From: Planctomycetaceae bacterium
Lineage (GTDB): Bacteria > Planctomycetota > Planctomycetia > Pirellulales > UBA1268
DNA length: 64,000 nt
Assembly (NCBI GenBank): GCA_011523305.1
Contig: WTHB01000010.1
Location: 20,526 to 84,525, forward strand
Reading direction: 5' to 3'
The position numbers and the translations under genes are program-made. Each line of letters opens with the position of its first letter. Position 1 is the first letter of the stretch. This document shows positions 26,274 to 49,475 of this stretch, in pieces. The notes below the pieces were generated by a model. That model made no database searches, was not told the origin of the DNA, and saw nothing but the letters and a program-made list of their open reading frames with translations.

Positions 26274-26423
26274 ACCCCTCATGGCTGGTCCCAAAACCTG
26301 CGGCAAAATCAGCTTGTTCCCGGGAGAACAGTGTCTCGACTATGATGCGACCTCGCCGTATTTCGCTGGCTCGACGGTGCTGACGACCGGCGGCCTCCAT
26401 TTTCCGTTTCCCCCCTCTGAGTA

Positions 26424-27707: not shown

Positions 27708-27731
27708 CTTAACAGGGGAAGGGCCATCCCT

Positions 27732-27915
27732 GGCCCCTTCCCGCTTGGGCGTCATCGGGGGAAGCCAGGGTTTCCCCGATGACGCTGGCCCGCCTCGTGC
27801 GGGCCGTGGTCAGTTTGCGTGAAGTGGTCAGTCGTCGGCCCCTTCCCGCTTGGGCGTCATGGGGGAAGCCAAAGGTTCCGCCAGTGACGCAGGCCCGCCT
27901 CGTGTGGGCCATGGT
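27732..27915. repeat. Two imperfect direct copies (about 79 bp each; 27732..27810 and 27838..27915) of a hairpin-containing intergenic element (REP/MITE-like)
   Basis: Copy 1 is ggccccttcccgcttgggcgtcatcgggggaagccagggtttccccgatgacgctggcccgcctcgtgcgggccgtggt. Copy 2 is ggccccttcccgcttgggcgtcatgggggaagccaaaggttccgccagtgacgcaggcccgcctcgtgtgggccatggt. Copy 1 has a perfect 12-bp inverted repeat (27749..27760 with 27774..27785). Copy 2 is degenerate. Confidence 0.8.
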
Positions 27916-28001
27916 GAGGATGCGTAACGTGGTTGAGACGGTGGGCTGGCGAGAGCGGGTCCTGGGTTTTTTATTTGGCTGCTTAAGTTTTTGGGAAGAC
28001 A

Positions 28002-29581: not shown

Positions 29582-30313
<732 letters not shown>

Positions 30314-30374
30314 TTCCGGCTGGCTGCTATGCTCACGCAGGCGTCGAGCGGACACGTCCTTCTGGGCTGGAACC

Positions 30375-33747: not shown

Positions 33748-33939
33748 AGAGCATCGACCAATCCTTTCGCCAACTCCCCCGTTGTCGTGCCGAGCCGATC
33801 GGTCACAGCCATTTACGGCGGCCCCGTAAGTCGCGTGGGGTCGCCAGGTTCTCCACTCTGCCAGAGGTGCTTTTTGAACGATTCGACAGGGACCAACGCC
33901 CGCCAGACACCCTCGGCAACGTTCCGAACCGACCGGGTG

Positions 33940-34692
33940 ATGCTCGTCAGGCTGTCACTCACCGCCACAGATGAGGTGTGTGGCCGGCTGGAGCAGCTGC
34001 TGTCCGCAGAGGAACGAGAGCGGGCCCTGCGGCGGCTCCCAACGGTCCGGCGGCGTGCCGTCGTCAGCCGGGGGCGGCTGCGGCAACTGCTGGGGCGGGT
34101 GCTCAACCTGCCGCCCGCTGAGGTCGTCTTGCAGACGAATCAGCATGGCAAGCCGGGCCTGACGGGAAGCCTTGCCGGCAGGTGTGAGTTCAACGTCACG
34201 CACTCCGGGGATGAGGGGCTGATTGCGGTGGCGGTCGATCGACCGGTCGGTGTCGATCTGGAAATCGGGAAGCCGACGCAGACGGTTGACTGGGCCAGGT
34301 TGATGGCTGGAACCATTTTTGGGGAAGCAGAACTGGCTCGGTGGCAGGGCGTGCCGGACAGTCAGGCGGCTGCTGCAGTCCTTGATGCCTGGGTTACCAA
34401 GGAGGCTGTCTTCAAGGCGGTTGGCACCGGCATTGGAGACCGCCTCCGGCAGTGCGAACTCCCGTCGGTCATTCCCCGGGTCGATCTGACAGCGTGGGCT
34501 GCACCGGTTGACTGTCAACTGGTCAAGGTGTCGCCGCTGGGGCCGGCATCAGCCGCGGAGTCTGGCGTCGGGGTGACGCTGCTCAGCCTGCAGCCCACCT
34601 GGCACGTCGCAGTTGCCACCACTGCGGCTCGCTGCAGTCTGTGGCTGACGGATTTCGAATCAGTCTTGCGGGGGGATCTGCCGCTCCGCTGA
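33940..34692 (+). CDS. Sfp-type 4'-phosphopantetheinyl transferase
   Basis: From the Met at 33940. Has FNVTHSGDEGLIAV, VGVDLE and WVTKEAVFKAVG (PPTase motifs 1 to 3). The upstream part of the 301-aa ORF has odd composition and was trimmed. Confidence 0.85.
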   Translation: MLVRLSLTATDEVCGRLEQLLSAEERERALRRLPTVRRRAVVSRGRLRQLLGRVLNLPPAEVVLQTNQHGKPGLTGSLAGRCEFNVTHSGDEGLIAVAVDRPVGVDLEIGKPTQTVDWARLMAGTIFGEAELARWQGVPDSQAAAAVLDAWVTKEAVFKAVGTGIGDRLRQCELPSVIPRVDLTAWAAPVDCQLVKVSPLGPASAAESGVGVTLLSLQPTWHVAVATTAARCSLWLTDFESVLRGDLPLR

Positions 34693-35616
34693 TTGCTGGG
34701 CGGGTGGCTGGAGAGGAGCGAGGGCCTGCTGAATGGCCGCAGCGAGTTGCAGCAGGGCCGGGGCAGTGTAGCTGCTGCGCGTGGCGTTCTGCCGGAGTGC
34801 CGGCGACCAGGCCAGATCGGTGCCGGGGGGGAGGTTGAGCAGGGCAAAGGCGTCCTGGGTCGGCATGCCGAGGAAAAACTGGCTGGCATCGACGTAGATT
34901 GCCCGGTCGTCACGGGTGCCCTCGGCGACCCACCGGGGTGGATCTGCTGTTGGCTCCAGGCTGCCGTGCGCCTGCTGCTTGAGGAGCCAGACGCAGGAAC
35001 TGCAGCGTCCGGTCGAGGCCTCCACCCAGATGAAGTGTCGCATGATCACGGGGGTTGGGCGTCCCTCGCGGTAAAAGCGGGCATCCACATCGACTACCTG
35101 CATCGTCTGATTCATGCCGATGCAACGCAGTTCAGACAGATGACGGCCATTGGCTGCCAGCACCTGCCGGCCGATCATGTCGATTCCCGCCGCTGCTGGT
35201 GGATTGTCGGTAGCAATCACGGTCAGGCTGCCGTCGAGTGGCACCGCGTAGCCGGCACCGACCTCCTGAAGCTGAAACACTGGGGGCTGCTGGGGGGCAC
35301 CCGTTTTTGACACGGTGGCCAACAAGGCGAGAGTGAAGAGCGGGACCCGCTGGCGGATCATGGCGGGGACGGAGTTGGCGTTCCCGCTGGCGATCCGGGA
35401 GGTAGCCGAATAGATTGACCGATTCCAGCGTGCCGCTGTCGGATCACCCACCACGGTTCCGGCCGCGACGGCTGTCAGCGGGTGGGCAGTCGAGGTGTCG
35501 GCTGCCTGGACGCAGGCGGTGCCCCACCAGGCCATGACCGCAAGTGCCAGCAGGCAGATGCACTCCACGCCGGGCCACCGAGATGGCAGAATAAAGTTCC
35601 GCGTGTTCATCGGCAT
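34660..35616 (-). CDS. Hypothetical secreted protein (about 319 aa)
   Basis: From MPMNTRNFILPSRWPGVECICLLALAVMAWWGTACVQA (signal peptide). No family recognised. The 3' end overlaps the convergent PPTase gene by 33 nt. The start is divergent from the ABC ATPase gene. Confidence 0.55.
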   Translation of the reverse strand: MPMNTRNFILPSRWPGVECICLLALAVMAWWGTACVQAADTSTAHPLTAVAAGTVVGDPTAARWNRSIYSATSRIASGNANSVPAMIRQRVPLFTLALLATVSKTGAPQQPPVFQLQEVGAGYAVPLDGSLTVIATDNPPAAAGIDMIGRQVLAANGRHLSELRCIGMNQTMQVVDVDARFYREGRPTPVIMRHFIWVEASTGRCSSCVWLLKQQAHGSLEPTADPPRWVAEGTRDDRAIYVDASQFFLGMPTQDAFALLNLPPGTDLAWSPALRQNATRSSYTAPALLQLAAAIQQALAPLQPPAQQSAERQIPPQD

Positions 35617-35663
35617 TCTCCGGAGGACACGGCCAGAAAAGGGATCGTGAGGGAGGATCGGGC

Positions 35664-36392
35664 GTGGAATCAAGGCTGAATGGCGGCAGGCCGGCGGACT
35701 CGCAAGCCCCTGGGGGAGCGGTGGTTGCGCTACGGGATGTGACCAAAGTCTATCGGGACGGCAACGTGCGGGCGGTCTCCGGGGTGTCGCTGGAGGTTCC
35801 AGAGCAAGGATTTCTGTCGGTGACGGGCCCCAGCGGTTGTGGAAAATCAACCCTGCTCAATCTGCTCGGTGGGCTCGATACGCCGACCAGCGGCGGCGTT
35901 TTTTTTCGGGGACAATCGCTGGCGACGCACAAAGACCTCGACAGGCTTCGCAGCCGCACGATTGGCTTTGTCTTTCAGACGTTCCATCTGTTGCCGAACC
36001 TGACCGCCCGGGAGAACGTCCAACTGCCGATGTTCGGTGATGGTCGTCGCGATGCCGAGCGGGAGGCCCAGGCGGCGGCACTGCTGGCGCGAGTCGGTCT
36101 GGCCGACCGCGAAGACCATCTGCCAGGGGCACTTTCGATCGGCCAACGCCAGCGGGTGGCAATCGCCCGTGCCCTGGCCAATCAGCCGGCACTGCTTCTG
36201 GCAGATGAGCCGACTGGCAGCCTCGACAGTGAGAGTGGCACCACGGTGATGGATCTGCTTGGTCACCTCCATGCTGATCTTGGCATGGCGATGGTCGTCG
36301 TTACTCACGATCCGGCGGTGGCCGAACGTGCTGAGCGGACTGTGCGGATGCTCGACGGGCGGATCGTCAGTGATACGGCTGGTTGTCCTTGA
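35664..36392 (+). CDS. ABC transporter ATP-binding protein, MacB/LolD/FtsE-like subfamily
   Basis: Walker A GPSGCGKSTLLN, Q-loop, signature LSIGQRQRVAIARAL, Walker B LLLADEPTGSLD, H-loop VVVTHD. The true start may be downstream of 35664. Confidence 0.9.
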   Translation: MESRLNGGRPADSQAPGGAVVALRDVTKVYRDGNVRAVSGVSLEVPEQGFLSVTGPSGCGKSTLLNLLGGLDTPTSGGVFFRGQSLATHKDLDRLRSRTIGFVFQTFHLLPNLTARENVQLPMFGDGRRDAEREAQAAALLARVGLADREDHLPGALSIGQRQRVAIARALANQPALLLADEPTGSLDSESGTTVMDLLGHLHADLGMAMVVVTHDPAVAERAERTVRMLDGRIVSDTAGCP

Positions 36393-36458
36393 GCGGGCGG
36401 AGGCTCGTCCACCAGGTAATTTTCTCTGGTTGGGGAAAGCAAGTGGCCAACTGGCTGA

Positions 36459-39400
36459 TTACGACATGACCGCTGCCTCAAGCGCGTCCCGGATGGCTGT
36501 GGCCAGGGTGGACGCGTGTGGCAGGGCGACCATGCTGTGATGGTGTCCGGGTACTTTGCTGACCTCCACGGAACGCAGGACCTGACTCCAGCCCCGGTCA
36601 TCCGGGCCACTCACGTCCACCGGGACTTCTTGCGGGCGGAACAGCACCCCGTCGGTATCGAGTGGCTGGGCGGTGCACTGATTGCAGAGCTGGACATGGT
36701 GGGAGAAGAGCCGCTGGAGGTCAGCAAGAACCTGTGAGACGAGAGCTTCGGGTGCCGTCGCTTCGATCAGACCAAGCTGTCGGGCATGGTCGTAGAGAAA
36801 CGGCAGCTGTTCCGAGGCTGGCAGGTTGCCAAGGGCTTCCAGGCTGATGTCGAGCCCGTATTCGCGGCCCGTTGACTGGTCGCTGCCGTTCACGCAGGGC
36901 AGGCTGGAGTCGAACAGGATCAGCCGTTCGACCTGATCTCCCTCGGCAATGAGTTGCCGGGCAACTTCACTGGCGATGACGCCGCCGAGTGACCAGCCGC
37001 CGAGGAGGTAGGGGCCGACTGGCTGGACACTGCGGAGGGCCGACGCATAGTCAGCAGCCATGGACTCGAGGCTTGCTGGGAGGGCTTCCTCGCCGTGCAA
37101 ACCACGAGAGCGAATCCCCAGCAGTGGCCGGGCCGGATCAAACTGCTGGGCGAGCGCTGCATAGCAGACAACGATGCCTCCGGGAGGATGTACCAGGAAC
37201 AGCGGTGGCAGGGAGCCCGTCGGCTTCAGCGGCACGATCAGGGGATGATGGTTAGCCGCCGATGTGACCGGGGCAGCCGGGGCCAGCGAGGCGTCTCCAA
37301 AGCGGGCCGCAACCGCCGCGGGATGCAGGTCGCCGAGCCGTTGTGCGATCTGGCTGATGTCTGCCAGGTCAAACAGCAGGACGGTTGGCACATGGACGCC
37401 GAGGTCTTCGCTGAGCTTGGCGGTGAGCATCGCTGCCTGAAGTGAGGTGCCACCGAGGTCAAAAAAGTTTTGATTGATACCGATGCCATCGAGCCCGAGG
37501 GTCTCCTGCCAGCGGCTGACAAGATGCTCCTCCAGCGGAGTTCGCGGTGCCAGGGGGGCTATCGCCTCCACCGTGGTTGGCCGCTCGGCTGCCAGGCGGG
37601 TGCGGTCGATTTTGCCACTGCTTGTGCGTGGCAACTGGTCCAGCAGCGTGAGTGTGGCCGGCCGCTTGATCCCCGGCAGATGAGCCGCCAGGTGTTGCCG
37701 GAGCGTTGTCAACGCAGTGGTCACGTCAGTCTGTGCGGTTACAACGACAAAACCAGCTAGCCGGGCTTCTGGGGTGCCTGGGGCCACCACCGTGACGGCT
37801 GCTTCGGCCACGCTCGGGTGGGCGGCCAGGCAGGCTTCGACCTCCCCAAGTTCGATCCGATAGCCCCGCAGTTTGACCTGACCATCGAGTCGGTCGAGGA
37901 ACTCGATGCAGCCGTCCGGCCGTCGCCGACACCGATCGCCAGTCAGATAAGCCCGCAGCGGTCCTTGGCTGCTCTGAAGGGTGATGAAGCGCGCCGCGGT
38001 GAGTTCAGGCCGCCCCAGATAGCCCCTGGCCAGACCTGGGCCGGCAATCACCAGTTCTCCCGGTACGCTGTCGGGAAGGGGCCGCTGATTTTCATCAACA
38101 ATCAGCAGCGTCGCTCCGGCCGCGGCGGTGCCCAGGGGGATGCGGCGCAGGCCGTCATGACTTCGTGGCACCGGCCAGACGGCGGCTTCGACGGTCGTCT
38201 CAGTCGGTCCGTAGAGATTCCACAAGGTCACCTTCGGTAGCCGGCCAACCCGGCGCGGCAGGTCAGCCGGCATCGCCTCGCCTCCGCACCAAATCTGACG
38301 GAGGCTGACGCATTCGGAAAATCGCGGATGCCGTCCTATCAACTGCAGCAGTGAGGGTGTCACCGGTAGCACGGTGATTTCATCGCGAATCACCTGGTCG
38401 ATCAACGCGTCGATGTCACGGCCTGCTTCGGTGTCAGCCAATACCAGCGTTGCGGCTGCCTGCAGCGTTGCCAGTGTCACGCCGAGGGCGGCATCGAACT
38501 GGTGGGAAAAGAGCAGCATCACGCGGTCCGTGGCAGCCAGAGGAATCTGCTGCTGCCGCCAGGCGAGGAGGTTGGCAATGGCTCCCTGTTCGATCAGCAC
38601 ACCCTTTGGACGCCCGGTCGAACCGCTGGTGTAGATGCAGTAGGCCAGGTCGGTGGTGGCCAGGTGCGGAAGAGTTTGCTCGGCAGGCGGATTCGTCAAC
38701 TCGTCCAGCCGAATCAAGTGAAGGCCCTCGGCGGCCGGGGAGTCGTCATTCGAGATGCCTGCAATGACCATGCAGCGAGCGGCGGTGTCGGCGAGCAGGT
38801 CGTCGCTGCCCACGGCTGGCTGCCGCTGGTCAACTGGGGTCGGTGCGTAGCCGGCCAGCATGGTGGCAACCGTGGCGACCACCGCCTCGCCACCTGTACC
38901 GAAGACCGGCACAAGGCTACCGACGGGCAGACCGGTTGCGGCCAGTTGCTGGTGCAGCGACTGCGCAAGGTTGTCCAGATCACGGTAGTGCCAGGTGGTC
39001 TCGCCGGCGATGACCGCTGAGCGATCAGCGGCCTCAGTGACCGCTGGGGCGAGCTGGTCGGAAACCGTGCCGTGGGCCGCGGTGCCGGCTGCTGCGTCCA
39101 ATGCCAGTTCGGACGAGGTGGCCCATGGTAGTTCAGAGAGCGGTTGTTCGGCCGCTGCGAGCAGTTCGCTGGTGAGGGTCTCCAGATTCCTGGCCAGGCA
39201 GGCGATTGTTGCCTGGTCGAACAGATCGGTCGCGTAGTGGATCATGCCGCGACAGGATGACTCGGTCTGCTCGAAGACAAACTCGATATCGTGGACGCAG
39301 GCCTGTTGGGGAACATGAAAACTCTCTTGGCGGAGCCCCGCAAAGTCCACCGCTTCGGCCCGGTCAGGAAAGAGGAAGCCGGCGCGACCAGCCTCTTCAC

Positions 39401-42400
39401 GACGGTGTGCTTTCTCGAAGGTGCACGACACCTGGAATAAGGGATTACGGCTGGGATCGCGGGCGTGGGGTGTGTCGGCGATGATTGCGGCCAGCGGATA
39501 GTCTTCGTGCTCAAGGGCTCCCAGGATCATCTGGCCGGTCCGTTCGACCAGCGTGCGAAAGGATGGGTCATCCCCAAGCCGCACAGGGATCGGCAGCATG
39601 TTGACGAAGAATCCAACCGTGTTTTCGAATCGTTGCTCACTGCGGCCGGAGAAGGGCATGCCGATGAGGAAGGAGGTCTGGCCCGACAGACGGGCGAGCA
39701 ACACTTCCACAGCAGCCAGCAGCACGGCCGACGGGGTCACGCCGGCGGTTGTTGCCAGCCGGCTGATTGCCGCTGACGTTACCGTCGACAGCGTCATTGG
39801 TTCGCTGGCCGCGTGGCCGGTGAAATGGCGGGGCCGGGGTCGGTCAGTTGGCAGGTCAAAGACGGTGGGAATGCCAGCGAGCGTCTGCTGCCAGAAGGTC
39901 TGCAGGCGTTCACGTGAATCCGCTTCGAGCAGTTGATGCTGGCGGTCGACGAACGCAGCGTAGTTGTTGGTGGGTGGGGGCAGGTCGGCAGCCATGCCGG
40001 CGGCCAACTGACGATAGCCGACGGCAATCTCCTGCAAAAGCAGAATCAGTGACCAGAAGTCGACGGCGATGTGATGGGTGGTCGCCTGCACCACCCAGTC
40101 GTCTTCTGCCAGTTTGAAGGCCGTCACCCGTAGCAGGGGCCCCCGTTCCAGATCGAAGGGCAAATGGGCATCTGCCGCAGCCTGGACCTGCACCTCGGCT
40201 TCCGAAAGGCCCGTGGCATCGACCACCGTAAACCGGGGCGGTAACGAATCATGGACCTGTTGCAGGAGCCGGCCCCCGGCATCGGAAAAAGTGGTCCGCA
40301 GGGTGGCATGCCGCTCGACCACCATGTGCATCGTCTGCTGGAGTGCTGCCACGTCGAGCTGGGACCGCACCCGGGTGGGAAGAAAGACGTTGTAGGCCGT
40401 GTCAGCGGGGTTTCGTCGGGCAGCAGCCCAAAGCCCGCGCTGCCCGGCTGAGAGCGGGAACGCTCGGGCGGCCGGCATCTCATGCGGGGACGCGTTGGCG
40501 GGGGCACCGGATCCGCTCGCGTCTGCCTGAACGCTCTCCGGTGAGCCTGCCTCTGCCAGCGTGCCGCAGAGCATGTCAATCAGCTCCGTCACACCAGTGC
40601 TCCGCATTAGTGCGGAGATCGCGAGGCTGATGCCGGTTCGGTTTTCAATCCAGTTGCGGAGTTCAACTGCCATGAGGGAGTCGAGGCCGAGTTCGAGCAG
40701 TGCCCGCTCCCGCTCAAGCTGCTCTGGGTCAATGCCCAGAAGCCCCGCCGCCTTGTCGCACACGACCGTTTCGACCATCGTGCGGCGGACAGGTGCCGCA
40801 GCGGTACGAATGGTTTCCGGGGTGATGGTGACTGCCTGGCTCGAGCCACTTTCGTTGCTGCGTGCCTGCAGCAGGTGGGCGAATTTGGGTGGCACATTGT
40901 CGGTGATGCCGAGGCCTCGCCAGCGACTCCAGTCCATTCGCAGAACGCTCAGCTGGATTTCACGTGAGGCGATCGCGTAGCCCAGGCAGGCCATCGCCTG
41001 CTGAACCGTGAAGCTGAGCACACCCTGTCGCTCCAACCGCGCGCTTAGTTCATTACGGCGGGCGAGGTACCCGACCTCGCCGAGGTGGCCCCAGTTGATC
41101 ACCGTGGCTGGCAGGCCAAGGTGGCGGCGGTGATGGGCCAGGCCGTCCAGTGCGGCATTCGCTGCGGCATAGTTTGCCTGTCCGGCATGTCCGAAGACGC
41201 TTGAGAGCGAAGAGAAGACCACGAACTGCTCGAGGTCGAGTCCGCAGGCCAGCGACTCTTGGTGAAGGTTCCAGCCGCCAAGTACCTTGGGCCTCAGGAC
41301 ACGATCGAGCGTGGCATGGTCGAGGTCAACAAGCAGGCGGTCCTCAAGCACCATCGCGGTGTGGAAGATGCCCCGGAGGGGCCGCTCCTCGGTGCTGATT
41401 GTCTTGAGGACACGTCGGACCTCTTCCGGTTTGGTAATGTCGGCCGGCAGCAGTCTGACTCGCGTTCCGGCCGCCTCCAGTTCACCGATCACGGCAGCCG
41501 CCTCAGCGGAGACCTGGAGACTGCGGCCTCCGAGAATCAGCGTGCCCGCCCCCCGGCTGGCCAGCCAGCGGGCAACCTCAAGGCCAAAACCGCCGAGCCC
41601 ACCTGCGACCCAGTAACTTCCGTCGGGATCGCAGGCGAGGGTGCCGGTGGTTGCCGGATGGATTGGGGCAGGCGGCGTGGTGTAGTCGATCACCAGTTTG
41701 CCGATATGGCGGGCCTGCTGCATCGAACGGAAGGTGGCAACTGCCTCGGTTGCGGGCTGCACCGTAATCGGCAGGGGGTGTAGCTCTCCTGATTCGAACC
41801 GTTCTGGAAGTGTCCGCAGCAGTTCACCCATGCGGCGAGGCTGTTGCTTGAAAAGTTGGTCCAGGTCGATGCCGAAGAAGGCGATGTTGTTCCGGAACGC
41901 GTAGAGCCCCAGGGCGGCATCACCGTAAATGTCCCGTTTGCCGATCTCCAGAAATCGCCCGCCAACGGCCAGTGCCTCGATGCCCCGGGGAATCGCCTCG
42001 CCGGGCAGGCTGTTGAGGATGATGTCGACGCCACCACTGAGGCGGTGGGCTTCATCAGCAAAGGCGAGGCTGCGGGAGTTCATCACTGCGTCGGCACCCT
42101 GTTCGCGGACGAACGCCCGTTTCTCATCGTTCCCAGCAGTGGCCAGAACGCGGGCGCCGGCGAGTCGGGCCAGTTGAATGGCTGCTAGGCCAACACCACC
42201 GCTGGCAGCATGAATGAGCACCGTATCGTCAGCCCGCATACGGCCGCAGGTTTCCAGGGCATGAATGGCAGTGAGGAACGCGATGGGTAGGGCGGCAGCC
42301 TGCTGGTGGGAGAGGTTCCGGGGCTTGCGGGTCACCAGATCGGTGGCCACAACCACATGGGTGCCGAAGGCACCGGGGGCAACTGCCATCACCTCGTCAC

Positions 42401-45400
42401 CGGGCTTCCAGCCCGTGACAGCCGTTCCCACCCGGCTGACGATGCCGGAGCATTCACTGCCCAGCACGGGCCGTCCCGGAGGCAGGCCCGGGTAGAGCGA
42501 GAGCACCTTCATGACATCGCTGAAATTGAGCCCCGCGGCATGCACTTCGATTTCGATGTCATGGGGGCCAAGTACCGGCAGCTGCACGAGGCGGTGATGA
42601 AGGTCCTCGACGCCGGCCGAGTCGCCCACCTCAAGTCGGGCCGGCAGGCTGGCGGTTGCCGCTGGGCAGGCGGTGTTGGTGGCATGAGGATGGAAGCGGC
42701 GGACCCAGCGGCGGCCCCGCCGCAGCAGAACCTCGTCTTCACCGTCGTCGCGACGGAGTTCCTGGACCAACTCAGCGAGGGCTGGGCGGGAATCGGCCGG
42801 CAGATCGACGAGCCGCGTTCGGAGCCGGTTGTATTCACTGGCAATCACCCGGCCCATGCCGATCAGTGGTGTCTGCGAGACGTCAACCGCTTCGGCGGTC
42901 GGGTCGGTCGTCTGAGCTTGTGCCGTCACCAGAAAGCAGGGCGTCTGGCCGGTCGGGCTGGCTGCCTCCCAGGCCTGCACCAGATGCAGCGGAGCCCGGC
43001 ATGTCAGGTGGGTACTGGCATCGAGGGCTGTGGTGGAAAGGGATGAGGTTCCCGGGGCATCGAGCGACCAGAGCCCAACAATGCCACCGATTGTTCCAGG
43101 GTCGATTGCCTCAAGCAGGCTGGTGAAGCCCGCCCGGTCGTTCGGGTTGAGGACGAAGGTTCCATCAGCCTCCTTGGAAAACCTGCTCCCAGGTCGCACG
43201 CAGACGACCTCATCTCCTGCCTCAACCAGCAGGGCCATGAGCTGATCGGTCGTCTCGTCGGCCGTTCCAAACAGCAGCCAGCGGGTTGCTGCCGTGGGCG
43301 GAGCAGCCGGGACGGCATCCTGTTCAACCCAGTCGAGGCGGTAGACCAGGTCGGCGGTGGTTTCGGCGGGGCCACTGCCCGTCACCCGGTGGCTGACAAA
43401 GCCGCGTATGCTCAGACAGAGCTGATCGGTTTCAGCCTCGTAGATATCGATGTCGGCAACGATGCGATCGTCGCTGCGGTCCCTGATTTGGACATGCACC
43501 GTGGCGGTGGCACCGGGTGAGCCTGCCGCGCGGATCTCGGCGATGGTATGCGGTAGGTAGAGGCCGGAGATCGTGTGATCAAAGTCTCGGTCCGCGGCGA
43601 TCATGCCATGAAAGCAGGCGTCGAGGAGGGCGGGGTGGACGGTGTAGTCGGCTACGTCTGAGGCGGTTGCCTGAGGAAGGTGGACCGCAGCCACGCACTC
43701 GCCCTGGCGGCGGTGCCCGTGGGTGATGCCACGAAACTGTTCCCCGTACTCAAGCCCGAGCCGGTCGCAGTAGTGGTAGAGGCGGTCCGCAGCAAAGGCC
43801 TCATCACAGCGGTCGCGGGCCGAGGCGAGGCTGGTGGTCAGCGGGGCAGGTGCGGCAGGTTCGCTTGCAATTGTGAGCGATGCGAGTTCGGTCCAGTCGC
43901 TGTCATCGACGCTGCGGTCGGCGAAGCTGAGACTGCGGCGATCGGGTCGGTAGCGGCATTCCATCCACCGGGCCGAAGCCTCGTCATGAATGCAGGCCTG
44001 CTTCAGGGTCAGGCGTTCCAGACGGATGGCCCCGGTCTCATCTCCTGCCAGACCGCGGGCCGCGGCAAGGGCCGCCTCAAGAAAGGCTGCGGCAGGATGC
44101 ACGCAGGCGCCGCGCACCCGGTGGTCTTGCAGATAGGTCTGCAGCCGCAGGTCGATGCGGCCCTGCCAACGGGCCTCGGGGCCATCAGCCCGCTCTCCAA
44201 GCAGGGGGTGCAGCGAGCGGCCCTCTCGGGAGAGCCGGGCCTCGCGGGACTCGTCCCGCAGGTATTTGGTCTGGAAGGGCTCCGGAGGGACGGGCAGGCG
44301 TCGTTGCGGGCGGGGATGGAGACGACTCCAGTCGATTGGGAGGCCACGGGTGGAGAGCCGGCCCAGGGACCCTAGCATGGCGTCGACGTCGTCTTTTTCG
44401 CGATGGAGCGACGGCAGGGTCTCGATCGTCTGGCCCGCCGCCTGGAAGCATTCATTGATGGCGTAGGCGAGGACCGGGTGGGGGCCAATTTCGATGGCCA
44501 TGTGAGTGCCACGGCTGGCCAGACAGGCCATGGCGTCGGCGAAGAGCACCGGCTGACGGACGTTCTGCCACCAGTAGTCAGCGGTGAGTTGAGGGCCGTC
44601 GAGCAGCCGTCCGGTGACTGTGGAGAAGAGTGGCACAGAGGTCTGCTGGGGGGTGAGATCGGCCAGCGACCGGAGTAGTTCTTCCCGGACCGGCTCCATC
44701 AGCGAACTGTGGAAGGCATATTCCACCGTCAGTCGCCGACAAAAGATGCCAGCGGCCTCAAAACGTCCGGCCAGATGTTCAATGACCTCGGCAGTCCCGG
44801 ACAGTGTCAGCGAGGTCGGGCCGTTGACGGCTGCGATGGCGATCAACTGCTCGTCGTCATCGACCCAGCCAGCAAGTTCGTCGCGGGACAGTCCGACCGC
44901 GAGCATTGCCCCCTGCGACGAGGCAAGGTCCATGGTGCGTCCCCGGTGGAAGGCAACCTGGCAGGCCTGTTTGAACGAGAGTCCACCGGCGACATAGGCG
45001 GCAGCGATTTCACCGACACTGTGGCCAACGCAGGCAGCAGGCTCGATTCCCCAATGCTTCCAGACGGCAGCAATGCCGGTCTGTACCGCGAAGATGGCTG
45101 GTTGGGCAAACCGTGTTAGCTTCATTCGAGAGCTGCTTTCATCGCGGAGTAGTTCTTCCACGAGTGACCAGTTGCCGTAGCGGGAAAACTCAGCGGCACA
45201 TTCCTCAATCACCCGGCGAAAGACGCCGCTGGAGGCGAAGAGTCGGCGTCCCATCGCCCACCACTGGGGGCCCTGGCCACTGAACACGAAGGCAATCTGG
45301 TCTGCATGCAGGTCGGTGCGGCGGTCGCTGGCCTGGCCGTTCGGCAGACTGGTTGCCGCGTCCCGGAGTTGGGTGATCAGGTCGGCATGGTCTCGAGCCA

Positions 45401-47090
45401 CGAAGGCCGCACGAGACAGCCCACCGCTGCGCCGATGGGCGAGGAAGGCGGCGATCTCACTCAGACTGATGGCTGCCCCGCCGGTCGTGCTGGAGTCCTC
45501 AAGCCAGGTGGCGAGGCGGTCGGCGGTGGCGGCGAGGCTCCGCTGATCGCGTGCGGCCACGGGGATAAGCAACGGTTCACTCACCCATTCCGAGGCGGGC
45601 TCACGATCAACAACTGAGGCCGAGGAAGATCGGCCCACCCCGCTCGCCGTCGGGCTCCGGCGAGCGTCGGGGGGAAGCAGGGGGGGGACCGGAGGCTCTT
45701 CGAGGATCACATGGGCATTCGCGCCGCCGTAACCAAAGCCATTGATGGCGGCGAGTCGCGGCTGTGGGTCTCCCGCGTGATCCGTGCCAGGCCATTCACA
45801 AGTCGCTGTGGGGACGCGGAGGCCGAGGCGGTCGAAGTCGATGGCCGGATTGGCCTGCTGAAAGTGCAGGTGGGCTGGAATGCGGCGGTGCTGCAGCGAC
45901 AACGCCACCTTGATCACGCTGGCAATGCCTGCGGCTGCCTCAAGGTGGCCGATGTTGGTCTTCACCGAGCCAATCAGGCAGGGACGGTCGGCGGGTCGAC
46001 CAGCACCGATCACGCTCCCGATGGCATTGGCTTCGATCGGATCTCCGACCGGCGTCCCTGTTCCATGGGCTTCGACATAACTGATGGCTGTTGGCTCGAT
46101 GGCAGCCTGCCGGCAGGCCTCACGAATGAGTTGTTGTTGGGCCTCGCCGTTGGGAACCGTCAGGCCGGCGGTGCGGCCATCCTGGTTTGAGGCAGTCGCG
46201 CGGATGACGGCATAGATCAGGTCACCGGCAGCGATGGCATCACGGAGGGGCCGAATCAGCACCATGCCAGCCCCTTCGCTTCGGACGTAGCCGTTGGCTC
46301 TGGCATCAAAGGTTTTGCAACGGCCATCGGGAGAGAGCACCCCGAGTTGGCTGAAGGCGACGGTGAAGTCGGGCATCAGCAGGGCGTTGACCCCACCGGC
46401 GAGCGCCATCGTGCTTTCCCCACGACGGATCGATTCACAGGCAAGGTGAACCGCCAAGAGAGAAGACGAACAGGCCGTATCGATGGCCAGACTCGGCCCG
46501 CGGAGATCGAATGAGTAGGAAATGCGGTTGGCAGCAATACTCGAGGACCCACCGGTGTTGCTGTAGGGGGTGATGACCCCGCGGTCCTGAAAACTGAGTG
46601 AGGCCACTGCATGGTCAAACGAGGAAATTCCAACGAAGACGCCAACGGCATCACCGGCCAGCTGCCGGGGGCTGCGACCGGCATCTTCGATGGCCCGCCA
46701 GGCAACTTCCAGCAGCATCCGCTGCTGAGGATCCATCATTGCTGCTTCCCGCGGGGAGATAGCGAAAGCCCACGGGTCAAAAGCCTGAATGTCGGTGACA
46801 TGACCACCCCAGCGGCTGAGCAGTTTGCCGGGGCTGGCGGAGCCAGAACGGTAGAACTTGGGGGTGCTCCAGCGGTCGGTGGGGGTTTCCGTGATTGCAT
46901 CCCGGCCCGAGTTGAGCAGGTTCCAGAAGGACGGCCAGTCGTTGGCTCCGCCGGGAAGACGACAGCCAATTCCCACGATGGCCAGTGGCTCACTGGCGGC
47001 GGGGGTGTCGGTGTTGCGGGCGACTGCGGTCTGCAGTCGCTGCCAGGCAGCAAGACGATTGGGGGAGTCGGGGTGGTTGGCGTCGTACAT
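36459..47090 (-). CDS. Hybrid type I PKS-NRPS megasynthase, 3543 aa: KS-AT-DH-(psiKR)-ER-KR-ACP-C-A-PCP-TE
   Basis: Motifs were read in the translation, and two were checked back to nucleotide positions.
- KS (about 45711..46988): DTACSSS (Cys codon 46470..46472), EAHGTGT, NIGHLE.
- AT (about 44391..45302): GHSVGE, YAFHS.
- DH (about 43371..44219): HPLL, HRVRGACVHP.
- ER (about 41685..42623): LIHAASGGVGLAAIQLA.
- KR (about 41076..41627): GGLGGFGLEVARWL, VLEDRLL, NYAAAN.
- ACP (about 40566..40793): LGLDSL.
- C (about 39141..40469): HHIAVDFWS, with the HH codons at 40071..40076.
- A (about 37581..39023): YTSGSTGRPKG, NLYGPTE, GELVIAGPGLARGY, GYRIELGE, SGKIDR.
- PCP (about 37326..37547): FFDLGGTSL.
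- TE (about 36471..37223): GWSLGG. Confidence 0.95.
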   Translation of the reverse strand: MYDANHPDSPNRLAAWQRLQTAVARNTDTPAASEPLAIVGIGCRLPGGANDWPSFWNLLNSGRDAITETPTDRWSTPKFYRSGSASPGKLLSRWGGHVTDIQAFDPWAFAISPREAAMMDPQQRMLLEVAWRAIEDAGRSPRQLAGDAVGVFVGISSFDHAVASLSFQDRGVITPYSNTGGSSSIAANRISYSFDLRGPSLAIDTACSSSLLAVHLACESIRRGESTMALAGGVNALLMPDFTVAFSQLGVLSPDGRCKTFDARANGYVRSEGAGMVLIRPLRDAIAAGDLIYAVIRATASNQDGRTAGLTVPNGEAQQQLIREACRQAAIEPTAISYVEAHGTGTPVGDPIEANAIGSVIGAGRPADRPCLIGSVKTNIGHLEAAAGIASVIKVALSLQHRRIPAHLHFQQANPAIDFDRLGLRVPTATCEWPGTDHAGDPQPRLAAINGFGYGGANAHVILEEPPVPPLLPPDARRSPTASGVGRSSSASVVDREPASEWVSEPLLIPVAARDQRSLAATADRLATWLEDSSTTGGAAISLSEIAAFLAHRRSGGLSRAAFVARDHADLITQLRDAATSLPNGQASDRRTDLHADQIAFVFSGQGPQWWAMGRRLFASSGVFRRVIEECAAEFSRYGNWSLVEELLRDESSSRMKLTRFAQPAIFAVQTGIAAVWKHWGIEPAACVGHSVGEIAAAYVAGGLSFKQACQVAFHRGRTMDLASSQGAMLAVGLSRDELAGWVDDDEQLIAIAAVNGPTSLTLSGTAEVIEHLAGRFEAAGIFCRRLTVEYAFHSSLMEPVREELLRSLADLTPQQTSVPLFSTVTGRLLDGPQLTADYWWQNVRQPVLFADAMACLASRGTHMAIEIGPHPVLAYAINECFQAAGQTIETLPSLHREKDDVDAMLGSLGRLSTRGLPIDWSRLHPRPQRRLPVPPEPFQTKYLRDESREARLSREGRSLHPLLGERADGPEARWQGRIDLRLQTYLQDHRVRGACVHPAAAFLEAALAAARGLAGDETGAIRLERLTLKQACIHDEASARWMECRYRPDRRSLSFADRSVDDSDWTELASLTIASEPAAPAPLTTSLASARDRCDEAFAADRLYHYCDRLGLEYGEQFRGITHGHRRQGECVAAVHLPQATASDVADYTVHPALLDACFHGMIAADRDFDHTISGLYLPHTIAEIRAAGSPGATATVHVQIRDRSDDRIVADIDIYEAETDQLCLSIRGFVSHRVTGSGPAETTADLVYRLDWVEQDAVPAAPPTAATRWLLFGTADETTDQLMALLVEAGDEVVCVRPGSRFSKEADGTFVLNPNDRAGFTSLLEAIDPGTIGGIVGLWSLDAPGTSSLSTTALDASTHLTCRAPLHLVQAWEAASPTGQTPCFLVTAQAQTTDPTAEAVDVSQTPLIGMGRVIASEYNRLRTRLVDLPADSRPALAELVQELRRDDGEDEVLLRRGRRWVRRFHPHATNTACPAATASLPARLEVGDSAGVEDLHHRLVQLPVLGPHDIEIEVHAAGLNFSDVMKVLSLYPGLPPGRPVLGSECSGIVSRVGTAVTGWKPGDEVMAVAPGAFGTHVVVATDLVTRKPRNLSHQQAAALPIAFLTAIHALETCGRMRADDTVLIHAASGGVGLAAIQLARLAGARVLATAGNDEKRAFVREQGADAVMNSRSLAFADEAHRLSGGVDIILNSLPGEAIPRGIEALAVGGRFLEIGKRDIYGDAALGLYAFRNNIAFFGIDLDQLFKQQPRRMGELLRTLPERFESGELHPLPITVQPATEAVATFRSMQQARHIGKLVIDYTTPPAPIHPATTGTLACDPDGSYWVAGGLGGFGLEVARWLASRGAGTLILGGRSLQVSAEAAAVIGELEAAGTRVRLLPADITKPEEVRRVLKTISTEERPLRGIFHTAMVLEDRLLVDLDHATLDRVLRPKVLGGWNLHQESLACGLDLEQFVVFSSLSSVFGHAGQANYAAANAALDGLAHHRRHLGLPATVINWGHLGEVGYLARRNELSARLERQGVLSFTVQQAMACLGYAIASREIQLSVLRMDWSRWRGLGITDNVPPKFAHLLQARSNESGSSQAVTITPETIRTAAAPVRRTMVETVVCDKAAGLLGIDPEQLERERALLELGLDSLMAVELRNWIENRTGISLAISALMRSTGVTELIDMLCGTLAEAGSPESVQADASGSGAPANASPHEMPAARAFPLSAGQRGLWAAARRNPADTAYNVFLPTRVRSQLDVAALQQTMHMVVERHATLRTTFSDAGGRLLQQVHDSLPPRFTVVDATGLSEAEVQVQAAADAHLPFDLERGPLLRVTAFKLAEDDWVVQATTHHIAVDFWSLILLLQEIAVGYRQLAAGMAADLPPPTNNYAAFVDRQHQLLEADSRERLQTFWQQTLAGIPTVFDLPTDRPRPRHFTGHAASEPMTLSTVTSAAISRLATTAGVTPSAVLLAAVEVLLARLSGQTSFLIGMPFSGRSEQRFENTVGFFVNMLPIPVRLGDDPSFRTLVERTGQMILGALEHEDYPLAAIIADTPHARDPSRNPLFQVSCTFEKAHRREEAGRAGFLFPDRAEAVDFAGLRQESFHVPQQACVHDIEFVFEQTESSCRGMIHYATDLFDQATIACLARNLETLTSELLAAAEQPLSELPWATSSELALDAAAGTAAHGTVSDQLAPAVTEAADRSAVIAGETTWHYRDLDNLAQSLHQQLAATGLPVGSLVPVFGTGGEAVVATVATMLAGYAPTPVDQRQPAVGSDDLLADTAARCMVIAGISNDDSPAAEGLHLIRLDELTNPPAEQTLPHLATTDLAYCIYTSGSTGRPKGVLIEQGAIANLLAWRQQQIPLAATDRVMLLFSHQFDAALGVTLATLQAAATLVLADTEAGRDIDALIDQVIRDEITVLPVTPSLLQLIGRHPRFSECVSLRQIWCGGEAMPADLPRRVGRLPKVTLWNLYGPTETTVEAAVWPVPRSHDGLRRIPLGTAAAGATLLIVDENQRPLPDSVPGELVIAGPGLARGYLGRPELTAARFITLQSSQGPLRAYLTGDRCRRRPDGCIEFLDRLDGQVKLRGYRIELGEVEACLAAHPSVAEAAVTVVAPGTPEARLAGFVVVTAQTDVTTALTTLRQHLAAHLPGIKRPATLTLLDQLPRTSSGKIDRTRLAAERPTTVEAIAPLAPRTPLEEHLVSRWQETLGLDGIGINQNFFDLGGTSLQAAMLTAKLSEDLGVHVPTVLLFDLADISQIAQRLGDLHPAAVAARFGDASLAPAAPVTSAANHHPLIVPLKPTGSLPPLFLVHPPGGIVVCYAALAQQFDPARPLLGIRSRGLHGEEALPASLESMAADYASALRSVQPVGPYLLGGWSLGGVIASEVARQLIAEGDQVERLILFDSSLPCVNGSDQSTGREYGLDISLEALGNLPASEQLPFLYDHARQLGLIEATAPEALVSQVLADLQRLFSHHVQLCNQCTAQPLDTDGVLFRPQEVPVDVSGPDDRGWSQVLRSVEVSKVPGHHHSMVALPHASTLATAIRDALEAAVMS

Positions 47091-47125
47091 CAGCAGGCGT
47101 GCATCCGTGACTGGAACGTTGGGAA

Positions 47126-48268
47126 TCAGGAAATCTCTCGAAAGGCCTCAGTGGGCAACAGGGCTGCTGCCCGCCGCGCTGGCAGCCAGGCACCGAGCAG
47201 ACCGATACCGAGGGCAATGACAAAACCTTGGCCAAGCGTGGTGGCGTTGATCACTGGCACGATCATGCCCCCGGTTGCAGGCGAGCGACTCAGCAGGCCC
47301 GTCAACGCATACGCGGCCAGCCCGCCAATGAAGGCGGCGGCCAGGGCCAGGCCGCATGACTCCAGCAGGATCATCAGCATGATCCGTCCGCGGGGCCAGC
47401 CGATTGCCCGAAGGATGCCAATCTCACGCGTCCGTTCGTGCACGCTGGTCATCATCGTGTTGAGCGTGCCGATCCCACCGATGATCATTGCCACCAGCGA
47501 GGTCATCCAGGCCATGCCGTCAGCCAGTTTCAGCCGCGTGTCCGTCTGAACGAATTCAGCTGTTGCCAGGGCAAGCAGCCGCGGGTCGACGGCCTCGATG
47601 GCTGCAACCGCTGAGGGCAGGTCGGTTGTCGATTCCAGCACTACGTTGACATAGGTGACCTGTCCGTCGCGGCCAGTGAGTTCCTGGAGAACCGGCAAGG
47701 GCAGAATCAGCGAGCCGTTCTCCCAGACACTGTGACTACGAAAGACGCCCACGATTCGGAAGGGCTCACCAAAAACGGACAGGGATGCACCGCTGTGCAG
47801 GCCCAGGCGGTCAGCGAGATTCTGGCCAACGAGCAGTTCGCGGGCATTGGGGCTACTGAACTGCGGCGGCCCTGCTGCCGGGCCGGCAGAGCCAGCGACT
47901 TCGTAGTCGGCAAGCAGCCATGAGTCGCTCGGCAGTCCCATGGTGGGAATGCCATAGATGCCCTCGTCCTCAAGGGAGAGCGTCTCAAGGAGCACGCCCG
48001 CCGTCCGAGCTACCCCCGGAAGGGCGGAGAGCTGCCGACTCGCGTCCTCCGAGACGGCGCTGCTGAGTCGGTCGGCCGCGCCCTGGCGTGAGACCACGAT
48101 GTCAATCTGATGGGCATCGTAGACATCAGCGAAGGCGCGGCGGAACCCGCGGCTGATGCCCAGCAGGGCGACAATCGCGGTCATCGCCGTCGCCAGCGCA
48201 GCCAGGGTCAACGCCGTACGAAACGGCCGGCGCACGATGTTTCGATAGACCAGTTCTGGAAACCGCAT
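47126..48268 (-). CDS. ABC transporter permease, FtsX/MacB/LolCE-like (4 TM with a large periplasmic domain)
   Basis: N-terminal TM (RPFRTALTLAALATAMTAIVALL), about 220-aa extracytoplasmic domain, and a C-terminal FtsX domain with TREIGILRAIGWPRGRI. 35-nt gap to the PKS-NRPS start on the same strand. Confidence 0.88.
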   Translation of the reverse strand: MRFPELVYRNIVRRPFRTALTLAALATAMTAIVALLGISRGFRRAFADVYDAHQIDIVVSRQGAADRLSSAVSEDASRQLSALPGVARTAGVLLETLSLEDEGIYGIPTMGLPSDSWLLADYEVAGSAGPAAGPPQFSSPNARELLVGQNLADRLGLHSGASLSVFGEPFRIVGVFRSHSVWENGSLILPLPVLQELTGRDGQVTYVNVVLESTTDLPSAVAAIEAVDPRLLALATAEFVQTDTRLKLADGMAWMTSLVAMIIGGIGTLNTMMTSVHERTREIGILRAIGWPRGRIMLMILLESCGLALAAAFIGGLAAYALTGLLSRSPATGGMIVPVINATTLGQGFVIALGIGLLGAWLPARRAAALLPTEAFREIS

Positions 48269-48683
48269 GGCAAGGGAGACGGAGCCAGAGAGACGAGGGG
48301 ATTGCCCCCAATAAAACCCCCGAAACGGTGGGTTGGCAACCTGGCGAGGTGGCTCCGTCGGTGCATCTGCGAGGCGACCTGACCGAATTTGCGGAAAAAA
48401 CGGTTTCGGAAGCCAGTTCGGGCAGCCTCACAAAGGTGGGGTCTGGGTGCCGCGGGTGAAGCGAAAGAAACCGCCACCGCGAAAGGGCCCATGCCCGCTG
48501 GTGGCGTGCGTGCTCTGCGGCGACTGGGCTGCGGCAGCAGGAAGTACCGGTTCTGCGGAAAGAATCGCTGCTCGGGTGAGGCGTCCGCCGATCGAGCGGA
48601 GTATGAGACCGACTTGGGAGAACGGAGGGCCCTGGGGGCTACGCTGGTGGGGTGGCCCTCTGGGAGGACCGTGCCGTCTCACG

Positions 48684-49475
48684 ATGAGCCGGTACCTGCT
48701 CGTCGTCGTGCTGGTCTTCGGGGGAAGCAGCCAGGGGCGAGCAGGTGAGCCAAAGGAACTCCATACCGATCGAGATGCCTTTACCCCCTCGGTCTATACG
48801 ATTCGTCCAGGTCAAGTTCTGAACGAGATGTCGCATGTCTACATTGAGAATCGCGAAGGGAAGCCGACCAACAACTATCCCGAGTACATCATGCGGATCG
48901 GGGCAACCGATCGGTTTGAGTGGCGACTTGGCGTCAATTATTCAGTCGGTTCGCAGGGGAATGTGGTGACCAGTGTCGAGGCGGGGGAGCTGCCGCTCGA
49001 TGGCAGTACCCTGTATGAGTCAAATTTCCTGTACGGCTTCAAGCTCTCAACGACAGATCAAGATGGCTGGATTCCAGCAAGTTGCTTCATCATGGAAGCA
49101 ACCACTCCGATGTACGGGCAGGACTTCGGAACCGAGCCGGTCGCAACCGTGGCTTTTGGTTGGGAGTTTCCCACGCACTGGCGGTTGGATGCTGCGATGC
49201 GATATGCCTACGCCGAATCCGAGATCAACTGGTTCAGCCGTTGGGGGCCGTCAGTGGTCCTCCGGGTGCCGGTCACTGACCGCTGGGAGGTCCATGCTGA
49301 ATACTTCGGCACCTTTAATCAGGGGCTGCCCGACGAAGTGAACCGGCCTTTCTTCAGCCCTGGCACACACTTTGTGATAAACGAGCGGATCGAACTCGGG
49401 CTGCGTGTGGGCTGGGGAATGACCCGGGACGCAGCGAATTTCTTTTCGGATGCCGGTCTGGCGATTCGCTATTAA
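48684..49475 (+). CDS. Putative outer-membrane beta-barrel protein (MetA-pathway 'transporter'-like)
   Basis: From the Met at 48684: signal peptide MSRYLLVVVLVFGGSSQGRAG, alternating hydrophobic beta-strand pattern, and a C-terminal FFSDAGLAIRY ending in an aromatic residue. The family assignment is tentative. Confidence 0.5.
   Translation: MSRYLLVVVLVFGGSSQGRAGEPKELHTDRDAFTPSVYTIRPGQVLNEMSHVYIENREGKPTNNYPEYIMRIGATDRFEWRLGVNYSVGSQGNVVTSVEAGELPLDGSTLYESNFLYGFKLSTTDQDGWIPASCFIMEATTPMYGQDFGTEPVATVAFGWEFPTHWRLDAAMRYAYAESEINWFSRWGPSVVLRVPVTDRWEVHAEYFGTFNQGLPDEVNRPFFSPGTHFVINERIELGLRVGWGMTRDAANFFSDAGLAIRY

Follow-up and report, generated by a model that had tools for sequence, protein, structure and literature searches.

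What might be made by a large hybrid enzyme encoded in a planctomycete genome, and do the genes packed around it take part in handling its product? This question is raised by a 64,000-nucleotide stretch of contig WTHB01000010.1 (positions 20,526 to 84,525 of the forward strand; assembly GCA_011523305.1) from a Planctomycetaceae bacterium of the order Pirellulales, which is referred to here as the window and which encodes a 3543-aa megasynthase (36459..47090, minus strand) combining a polyketide synthase (PKS) with a nonribosomal peptide synthetase (NRPS). A first-pass annotation, made from the sequence alone, had grouped six genes within positions 33940–49475 into a candidate system for the production and export of a lipo-amino acid or lipopeptide, and all six are present in the list of open reading frames (ORFs) at the coordinates and on the strands that it gave. 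Its core idea survives the analysis reported here, but with a redrawn set of genes and a weaker case for a dedicated system. The interpretation developed below, to which we give about an even chance, is that a hybrid enzyme resembling mycocerosic acid synthase (MAS) makes an N-acyl amino acid lipid, which is handled in the cell envelope by the products of conserved neighbouring genes. The domain content of the megasynthase, its intact motifs and the conservation of its neighbourhood are established directly.

The comparison drew on approximately 60 loci, which were gathered from homologues of an unannotated secreted protein encoded near the megasynthase and of the dehydratase region of the megasynthase, from a scan of genome contigs with an alignment of the secreted protein, and from a scan of metagenome contigs with an alignment of the adjacent FtsX-type permease. 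Where counts are given as "distinct contigs", loci from the same contig are merged, as are the near-identical Logan contigs L059-L061; counts of "loci" are unmerged.

Domain organization and predicted product of the megasynthase

The megasynthase comprises ketosynthase (KS), acyltransferase (AT), dehydratase (DH), pseudo-ketoreductase (psiKR), enoylreductase (ER), ketoreductase (KR), acyl carrier protein (ACP), condensation (C), adenylation (A), peptidyl carrier protein (PCP) and thioesterase (TE) domains in the order KS-AT-DH-(psiKR)-ER-KR-ACP-C-A-PCP-TE. It divides into a PKS half (40491..47090, minus strand, aa 1–2200), which is MAS-like and runs KS-AT-DH-psiKR-ER-KR-ACP, and an NRPS half (36459..40490, minus strand, aa 2201–3543), which runs C-A-PCP-TE. 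Pfam placed the KS at residues 34–410, the AT at 601–916, the DH at 961–1241, the ER (ADH_N/ADH_zinc_N) at 1508–1801, the KR at 1824–2003, the ACP at 2110–2174, the C domain at 2210–2657, the A domain at 2684–3160, a second PP-binding domain (the PCP) behind it and the TE at 3296–3534, with E-values ranging from 1e-88 to 1e-11 across the megasynthase domains, and a psiKR-like stretch lies between the DH and the ER. Inspection by eye and alignment with 15 orthologues showed that every domain retains intact catalytic motifs, which differ little or not at all among these proteins; they include DTACSSS, EAHGTGT, NIGHLE, GHSVGE, YAFHS, HxxxGxxxxP, HAASGGVG (in the ER), GGLGGFG, YAAANA and LGLDSLM in the PKS half, and HHIAVDF, YTSGSTGRPKG (A3), LGGTSLQ, GWSLGG and GHHHSM in the NRPS half. 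As expected of a type I PKS, the KS Cys/His/His, AT Ser and ACP Ser residues are present, and, as expected of a hybrid PKS-NRPS, the polypeptide continues past the ACP with the C, A and PCP domains and a release domain. What had been proposed for this enzyme, both its domain order and the N-acylated-amino-acid logic, holds up against the Pfam domains and the conserved motifs.

The PKS half (residues 34–2182) aligns without a break with the mycocerosic acid synthase of Mycobacterium tuberculosis (Mas, 9d2z residues 6–2104; 1044 bits), and residues 35–2179 align with positions 3–2085 of the 2086 positions of the NCBIfam Pks2 model (Pks2_ls1_myc), scoring 1202 bits against a cut-off of 2400; no threshold of the other NCBIfam PKS equivalogs was reached by the megasynthase. 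Because the alignments to Mas and Pks2 are full-length and the score falls below the Pks2 cut-off, the PKS half is classed by these matches as a MAS-like, fully reducing single module that is the equivalog of no named enzyme. Methylmalonyl-specific AT domains follow a rule of GHSQGE and YASH-type motifs; the AT motifs found here, GHSVGE and YAFHS, are invariant in the orthologues, with FAQPAIFAVQ upstream, and are read as malonyl-like, not methylmalonyl-like. Since neither a loading domain nor a fatty acyl-AMP ligase (FAAL) is encoded in the conserved block of genes delimited below, the single module is probably used iteratively or on a fatty-acyl primer. An MbtH-like ORF was likewise not found in the whole window. 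A query of the protein database with the DH region returned only matches shorter than 1000 aa, which hence give no measure of the spread of the fused architecture.

The NRPS half matches standard C-A-T modules in a sequence search of the Protein Data Bank (PDB). Its A-domain specificity (Stachelhaus) code, read by GrsA numbering and checked position by position, is DAGPWGLVEK, with DAGPWG[F/C]VEK in the orthologues; no amino acid could be assigned to this code or its variants, which appear neither in the 2025 signature-sequence paper nor in the searchable literature. Glycine, suggested as the substrate by a match to LgrA (428 bits), was rejected, because that score adds up two separate A-domain matches (198 and 228 bits). 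From a fully reducing PKS, a single NRPS module and a TE, the predicted product is a single amino acid carrying a saturated acyl chain in amide linkage. The prediction that the holo-enzyme forms a saturated N-acyl amino acid can be considered well grounded on its sequence, apart from the chain length, the iterativity and the amino acid, which we infer, as we do the mode of release.

The same layout could be read in another way. The polycyclic tetramate macrolactam (PTM) synthases for heat-stable antifungal factor (HSAF) and ikarugamycin are bacterial single polypeptides with one iteratively used PKS module, C-A-PCP and a TE, lack a loading module and an ER, and place polyenes on ornithine. A synthase of this kind, putting two chains on a diamino acid for cyclization by the TE, would have the single-module PKS-C-A-PCP-TE layout and the missing loading module in common with the megasynthase, and the Glu at code position 331, which we take to be compatible with a basic side chain, could suit it. 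However, the megasynthase has an intact ER and a MAS-like reducing region that is not of the polyene-forming type, its A-domain code differs from the ornithine codes familiar to us, and the PTM tailoring genes are missing, no FAD oxidoreductase, alcohol dehydrogenase or hydroxylase gene being present in the block. We regard a PTM-like pathway as very improbable.

Extent and gene order of the conserved block

The conserved block in the window extends over 31658..48268 and not over 33940..49475, as had been annotated. Two conserved genes lie to the left of the earlier range, namely those for a START-like secreted protein (31658..32617, plus strand; 319 aa), with a predicted START/helix-grip lipid-binding fold, and for an SppA/S49-like lipoprotein (32614..33747, minus strand; Pfam Peptidase_S49, 1.4e-26). 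On the right, a divergent gene for a beta-barrel outer-membrane protein (OMP)-like product (48684..49475), which matches Pfam Phenol_MetA_deg weakly (25 bits against a cut-off of 22), drops out: it lies upstream of FtsX, together with a ThuA gene, only in the five closest loci (FtsX identity of at least 69%), and elsewhere its place is taken by mutually unrelated genes. Its membership in the gene set and its role as an outer-membrane component were therefore rejected on synteny. Between these limits are encoded an Sfp/HetI-type 4'-phosphopantetheinyl transferase (PPTase; 33940..34692, plus strand; Pfam ACPS and AASDHPPT_N), a secreted protein of unknown function without a recognisable fold (34660..35616, minus strand; 318 aa), a LolD/MacB/DevA-type ABC ATPase (35664..36392, plus strand; Pfam ABC_tran, 1.6e-34), the megasynthase, and an FtsX/MacB-PCD permease (47126..48268, minus strand; Pfam MacB_PCD at 18–226 and FtsX at 255–368) with four transmembrane segments and a periplasmic core domain. 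The Pfam matches bear out the classes first given to the PPTase, ATPase and permease. The start of the PPTase gene is uncertain, as its ORF already opens at 33787 and gene calls for homologues give 272 aa. In agreement with the first-pass annotation, no tailoring gene for a P450, a methyltransferase or an FAD oxidoreductase is found in the block.

The strands alternate along the block, and only the permease and megasynthase genes, separated by a 35-nt gap, are co-oriented, which rules out a six-gene operon; by their layout, only these two genes look co-transcribed. The remaining junctions measure -4, 192, -33, 47 and 66 nt, the ATPase gene being convergent with the megasynthase gene (66-nt gap) and divergent from the gene for the unannotated secreted protein, with 47 nt between the two start codons. 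The convergent 3' ends overlap by 33 nt in the case of the PPTase and the unannotated protein (34660..34692) and by 4 nt in the case of the START-like and S49 genes (32614..32617), which is unusually close spacing for genes that alternate in strand. A promoter and terminator scan of the 31–50 kb region returned fewer sites than shuffled controls.

Conservation of the block in related loci

The named records of related loci all belong to the Planctomycetota, and most are Pirellulales bins of freshwater or marine origin. The nearest relatives are Logan contigs with 93–98% identity in the block proteins; no close match was found among cultured strains or GTDB representatives, the best of which show 66–68% identity in the unannotated secreted protein. 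The source of the window is an uncultured planctomycete of Pirellulales type. The megasynthase and the unannotated protein (33–67% identical) occur together on 15 distinct contigs, with the near-identical Logan set excluded, and on 10 of these 15 the order is megasynthase, ATPase (opposite strand), unannotated protein, PPTase (opposite strand), S49 and START-like protein (opposite strand). Three of the other five end at a contig edge, and L014 and L002 are without the PPTase gene. Of the 20 loci with at least 0.9 kb visible downstream of FtsX, 18 have a KS there, at FtsX identities of 77–51%, the exceptions being L045 and L057. Furthermore, FtsX and the ATPase are both present wherever both ends of the cluster are visible (the window, L001, L002 and Ga0214917_10000385). 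Conservation of the six-gene neighbourhood thus holds for the permease, ATPase, unannotated protein and PPTase, which co-occur with the megasynthase, and fails for the beta-barrel gene, confined as it is to the five closest loci.

Outside the block, the gene content varies among loci: Lpd (lipoamide dehydrogenase), GAF-SpoIIE, AP endonuclease or phage genes are found past the START side, and OMP/ThuA, RtcB-like or DUF1501-like genes past the permease side. The block remains intact across loci in which the unannotated protein is only 45–50% identical, while these outer flanks diverge. A second arrangement, with the S49 gene immediately upstream of FtsX, is seen in L002, L044, L046, L047, L050, L053 and L054 (FtsX 51–61% identical), whereas in window-like loci the S49 gene lies downstream of the PPTase gene; the position of the S49 gene in these distant loci indicates that it stays beside the cluster after rearrangement. 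The START gene adjoins the S49 gene in L053 and L054 and lies about 6 kb away in L044, so the two are found side by side in both arrangements of the cluster.

Some further features of these loci were recorded. Directly past the START-like gene in L006 (14135..20903; bin GCA_965662195.1) are genes for an integrase, a terminase small subunit and a family A DNA polymerase, and these phage-type genes mark one boundary of the block. In L057 (792..1862), FtsX is followed by a membrane fatty-acid-desaturase-like ORF (HDGAHW, HFRHHR, HLEHH) without a KS, and the contig ends soon after. The cluster is broken into many short frameshifted ORFs (FtsX, KS, AT and others) in L001 and L002, which are metagenome contigs from ENA; because all domains can still be aligned, these frameshifts look like long-read assembly error and not decay. 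L012, L014, L019 and L023 come from bins labelled Chitinophagaceae or Candidatus Kuenenia and are collinear with the block at 46–62% identity; the labels probably reflect mis-binning or misclassification. In the window, a pyruvate/2-oxoglutarate dehydrogenase gene set (18932..29387) flanks the block and ends in the Lpd gene (28002..29387); it is kept in the close relatives L062 and L064. A UDG gene and a GAF-SpoIIE phosphatase gene (29582..31655) separate Lpd from the START-like gene in the window.

Proteins encoded around the megasynthase

The permease shows weak likeness to the NCBIfam models for ADOP, MacB and LolCE (lolCE, 34 against a cut-off of 362), and the best NCBIfam matches of the ATPase are LolD (220 bits, cut-off 308), MacB and DevA, all of them below the respective cut-offs. 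The permease combines four helices of the FtsX type with a MacB-type core domain, as do type VII ABC permeases, and a cognate ATPase is present; from these features, the two proteins are classed as a generic type VII ABC pair. The best NCBIfam match of the PPTase is HetI, also under its cut-off. The PPTase gene adjoins the gene for the unannotated secreted protein in most loci, whether the megasynthase is present or not; it is missing from the locus in L002 and L014.

The START-like protein has no match in Pfam or NCBIfam and could not be assigned to the family at the level of sequence. An AlphaFold2 (AF2) model of it (mean pLDDT 73, core approximately 88) was compared with the PDB by Foldseek, which returned 46 matches with E<=1e-3, among them the CERT START domain with ceramide (E 2.6e-6) and StAR (TMt 0.61); the Foldseek probability was 1.00 for CERT, StAR, MLN64, PCTP and STARD4, with TMt values of up to 0.61. 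The predicted structure shows the helix-grip arrangement of a long C-terminal helix over a curved beta-sheet, so that the protein resembles ceramide- and sterol-binding domains and is a candidate lipid-binding protein. A hydrophobic, signal-like segment is found at its N-terminus and at that of 23 of 28 homologues. A 2026 review of bacterial START proteins mentions neither periplasmic or secreted members nor planctomycetes, and, judged from that review, a secreted START-like protein seems unusual in bacteria.

The S49 protein aligns with SppA of Bacillus subtilis and Escherichia coli (4kwb/3rst; E 2e-30). The nucleophilic Ser of SppA ('AASGGY') is replaced by Gly in the window protein ('GAGGGY'), and the column of Lys199 is not conserved; this loss of the Ser-Lys dyad is common to 23 of 24 S49 orthologues, the serine being kept only in L054. 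Taken together with a lipobox-like IITGC at the N-terminus, these substitutions suggest that the S49 protein is probably no peptidase and looks like a conserved pseudo-peptidase lipoprotein.

The unannotated secreted protein has no match in Pfam or NCBIfam. The signal peptide first noted in it is supported by a hydrophobic N-terminal segment, which is shared by 24 of 25 homologues. Its AF2 model (pLDDT 86.5) consists mostly of beta-strands with a C-terminal helix, and Foldseek found nothing significant for it in the PDB (best E 0.18, TM 0.15) or in BFVD. START-like entries among its weak PDB matches (E 0.18–1.4, TM approximately 0.15) were not taken as evidence, and the possibility that it is a paralogue of the START-like protein was rejected, since BLASTP and hhalign show no relation between the two. 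A profile HMM search retrieved 539 clusters at 50% identity (E<=1e-3), which places the protein, on sequence grounds, in a large unannotated family (homologues P0028-P0200). A LolD-type ATPase gene lies divergently upstream of its gene in 23 of 31 distinct contigs on which the upstream side is visible, and this divergent pairing is usual even where no PKS is nearby.

Proposed pathway and alternatives

In the pathway proposed here, the PPTase would activate the ACP and the PCP, and the KS-AT-DH-ER-KR-ACP half would build or elongate a fully saturated acyl chain, probably from malonyl units. The C domain would use this chain to acylate the alpha-amino group of a single amino acid activated by the A domain, and the TE would release an N-acyl amino acid lipid. 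The FtsX/MacB-type permease and the LolD-like ATPase may then act as a type VII ABC extractor of the amphiphile at the inner membrane, and the secreted START-fold protein might serve as its periplasmic lipid carrier. Fold and synteny point, more speculatively, to the serine-less SppA-like lipoprotein and the secreted protein without a recognisable fold as likely further partners. The envelope handling is proposed less firmly than the chemistry, and the transport route is conditional throughout.

Several observations weigh against this interpretation. The strand alternation across the block does not imply co-transcription, the START assignment depends on a predicted structure of medium confidence, and no membrane-fusion adaptor (HlyD/MFP), TolC-like channel, LolA domain or flippase was found among the block genes. 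The related loci all belong to a single clade at the level of an order, and shared descent may account for part of the synteny. In nine loci from Pirellulaceae and Aureliella bins (unannotated protein 32–40% identical), the megasynthase and FtsX are absent within 10 kb; eight of the nine keep the divergent ATPase gene, and five of those eight the PPTase gene as well. The ninth, L029, is also without the ATPase and has a Na/Pi cotransporter gene. No permease was found beside the ATPase in these megasynthase-free loci, where the neighbours are FloA, MoxR/BatD, GNAT, sulfatase and inositol phosphatase genes. In L011, L013 and L024, homologues of the unannotated protein that are 52–60% identical occur without ATPase or megasynthase, next to amidohydrolase, NamZ and GH92 genes. 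Because the ATPase, the unannotated protein and the PPTase are found without the megasynthase, they are not dedicated accessories and may serve a more general role; of the dedicated six-gene system first proposed, the co-occurrence stands and the exclusiveness does not. Directly downstream of the ATPase gene, the megasynthase-free loci carry a conserved ORF of approximately 107–150 aa that has no Pfam match and no counterpart in the window (L003 8701..9024, L025 4402..4734, L027 2816..3151, L031 8458..8907 and L034 8717..9070).

Such loci lend themselves to an explanation by inherited gene order without a functional link, according to which the megasynthase and FtsX form one unit, the ATPase, unannotated protein and PPTase (a general Sfp-type enzyme) form an older, independent module, and the S49 and START-like genes are unrelated envelope genes located nearby by chance in this clade. 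Apart from the occurrence of the trio without the megasynthase in Pirellulaceae-type loci and of homologues of the unannotated protein at 52–60% identity in unrelated contexts, this explanation is favoured by the size of the unannotated family, which far exceeds the megasynthase clade, by the alternating gene orientations, and by the unrelated Lpd/pyruvate dehydrogenase and OMP/ThuA genes that the closest relatives also share. However, the outer flanks diverge where the block is still intact, at 45–50% identity of the unannotated protein, and the S49 gene is kept by the cluster in the second arrangement. A stand-alone FtsX permease, moreover, needs an ATPase, of which the block holds only one, and both are present where both ends are visible. 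We consider an association by descent alone quite unlikely.

The chemistry proposed above would be the same in an ordinary secondary-metabolite cluster, whose product would be a diffusible N-acyl amino acid, or a modified one, acting as a surfactant, signal or antibiotic; the FtsX/ATPase pair would be an exporter or a self-protection pump, like MacB-type pumps linked to other biosynthetic gene clusters, and the START-like, S49 and unannotated proteins would be bystanders. The ATPase resembles the darobactin exporter DarD and MacB, and with the stieleriacines there is a planctomycete precedent for N-acyl amino acids as extracellular mediators (PMC7293339, PMC12078418). Against this stand the absence from the block of the membrane-fusion protein and outer-membrane channel that known MacB-type exporters require, the position of the S49 gene beside the cluster after rearrangement, and that of the START gene beside S49 in L053 and L054. 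In addition, the block is intact in many freshwater and marine bins and carries no tailoring or regulatory genes, which is more like the conservation of a housekeeping lipid than that of a strain-variable metabolite. A diffusible product is therefore viewed as possible, although somewhat on the unlikely side.

The proposal of an envelope-handled N-acyl amino acid lipid also has a bolder form: the lipo-amino acid would be a structural component of the outer envelope in a Pirellulales clade and would pass the periplasm by an undescribed route consisting of a Lol-like type VII extractor, a START carrier, a cage of a dead SppA-like lipoprotein and a secreted protein whose fold lacks a solved relative, analogous to LolCDE-LolA or PDIM/LppX (the mycobacterial phthiocerol dimycocerosate system) but with different parts. 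This form is held to be doubtful. To our knowledge, the envelope lipid composition and lipid trafficking of planctomycetes are poorly known. No PKS-NRPS product from a planctomycete was found in a review or in literature searches, and the terms PKS-NRPS, NRPS and hybrid are absent from the 2025 review of planctomycetal metabolites. The block offers a compact target for heterologous expression, with a single megasynthase gene, a PPTase gene and an orphan A-domain code, and its candidate envelope partners, namely the START-fold protein, the serine-less SppA homologue and the 540-cluster family without a known fold, could reveal how an amphiphile transits the periplasm in a diderm outside the Proteobacteria. 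If the product is merely a minor surfactant, the locus is a routine genome-mining lead.

Comparison with known systems

Hybrid PKS-NRPS clusters are an already known kind. The nearest analogies to the proposed pathway are offered by the lipid pathways of mycobacterial Mas and Pks2, together with their transport partners, and by LolCDE-LolA or DevBCA. The view that this particular gene set has not been characterised still holds, as no NCBIfam equivalog was identified and the literature searches returned nothing; each of the closest families departs in this locus from at least one of its tested defining features. The fungal highly reducing PKS-NRPS enzymes, such as PsoA and pramanicin synthase, have the order KS-AT-DH-...-ER-KR-ACP-C-A-T in common with the megasynthase; PsoA was among its PDB matches, and a literature search on the architecture string returned fungal papers only. 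In contrast to the bacterial enzyme described here, which ends in a TE and has no methyltransferase domain, the fungal enzymes end in a reductase or Dieckmann cyclase (R/DKC) domain, usually with a C-methyltransferase (C-MeT) and an inactive ER.

The four-helix FtsX permease with a MacB core and a separate LolD/MacB/DevA-like ATPase are features shared with the type VII systems LolCDE-LolA, MacAB-TolC, DevBCA-HgdD, PvdRT-OpmQ and DarBCD. For DevBCA and LolCDE the cargo is lipidic, and the genes for DarBCD and PvdRT belong to biosynthetic clusters. Unlike in those systems, the ATPase and permease genes lie here on opposite strands with the 10.6-kb megasynthase gene between them, the conserved block lacks a membrane-fusion protein, a TolC-like channel and a LolA-like protein, and the NCBIfam scores are all under the cut-offs.

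The NasY N-acyl amino acid synthases, which account for the stieleriacines, share the predicted product class and the phylum with the system described here (PMC12479983, PMC7293339). The analogy with stieleriacines drawn in the first-pass annotation is apt as to product class but not as to enzymology, since stieleriacines are made by NasY acyltransferases and not by a PKS-NRPS (PMC12479983). NasY is a small acyltransferase that uses acyl-ACP, as against a 3543-aa thiotemplate assembly line, and a domain search found no NasY-like domain in the block genes.

The closest parallel to the PKS half is found in mycobacteria, where Mas in the PDIM system (Mas/PapA5/FadD28/DrrABC/MmpL7/LppX) and Pks2 in the sulfolipid-1 system (Pks2/PapA1/MmpL8) have the same order of KS-AT-DH-psiKR-ER-KR-ACP. 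Here, the phylum differs and the scores lie under the NCBIfam equivalog cut-offs; the AT is malonyl-like (GHSVGE, YAFH) and not methylmalonyl-like, and FAAL is absent. The ABC parts are of the FtsX/MacB type and not DrrABC, and the carrier candidate has a predicted START fold and not that of LolA/LppX. In the Mas and Pks2 systems, as is proposed here, a condensation-type catalyst takes the chain off the synthase, although the condensation domain of the megasynthase is fused and would feed an aminoacyl-PCP instead of a polyol or sugar. The PDIM system unites a synthase, an ABC transporter (DrrABC) and a secreted lipid-binding-type protein (LppX), and a comparable combination is encoded in the planctomycete block.

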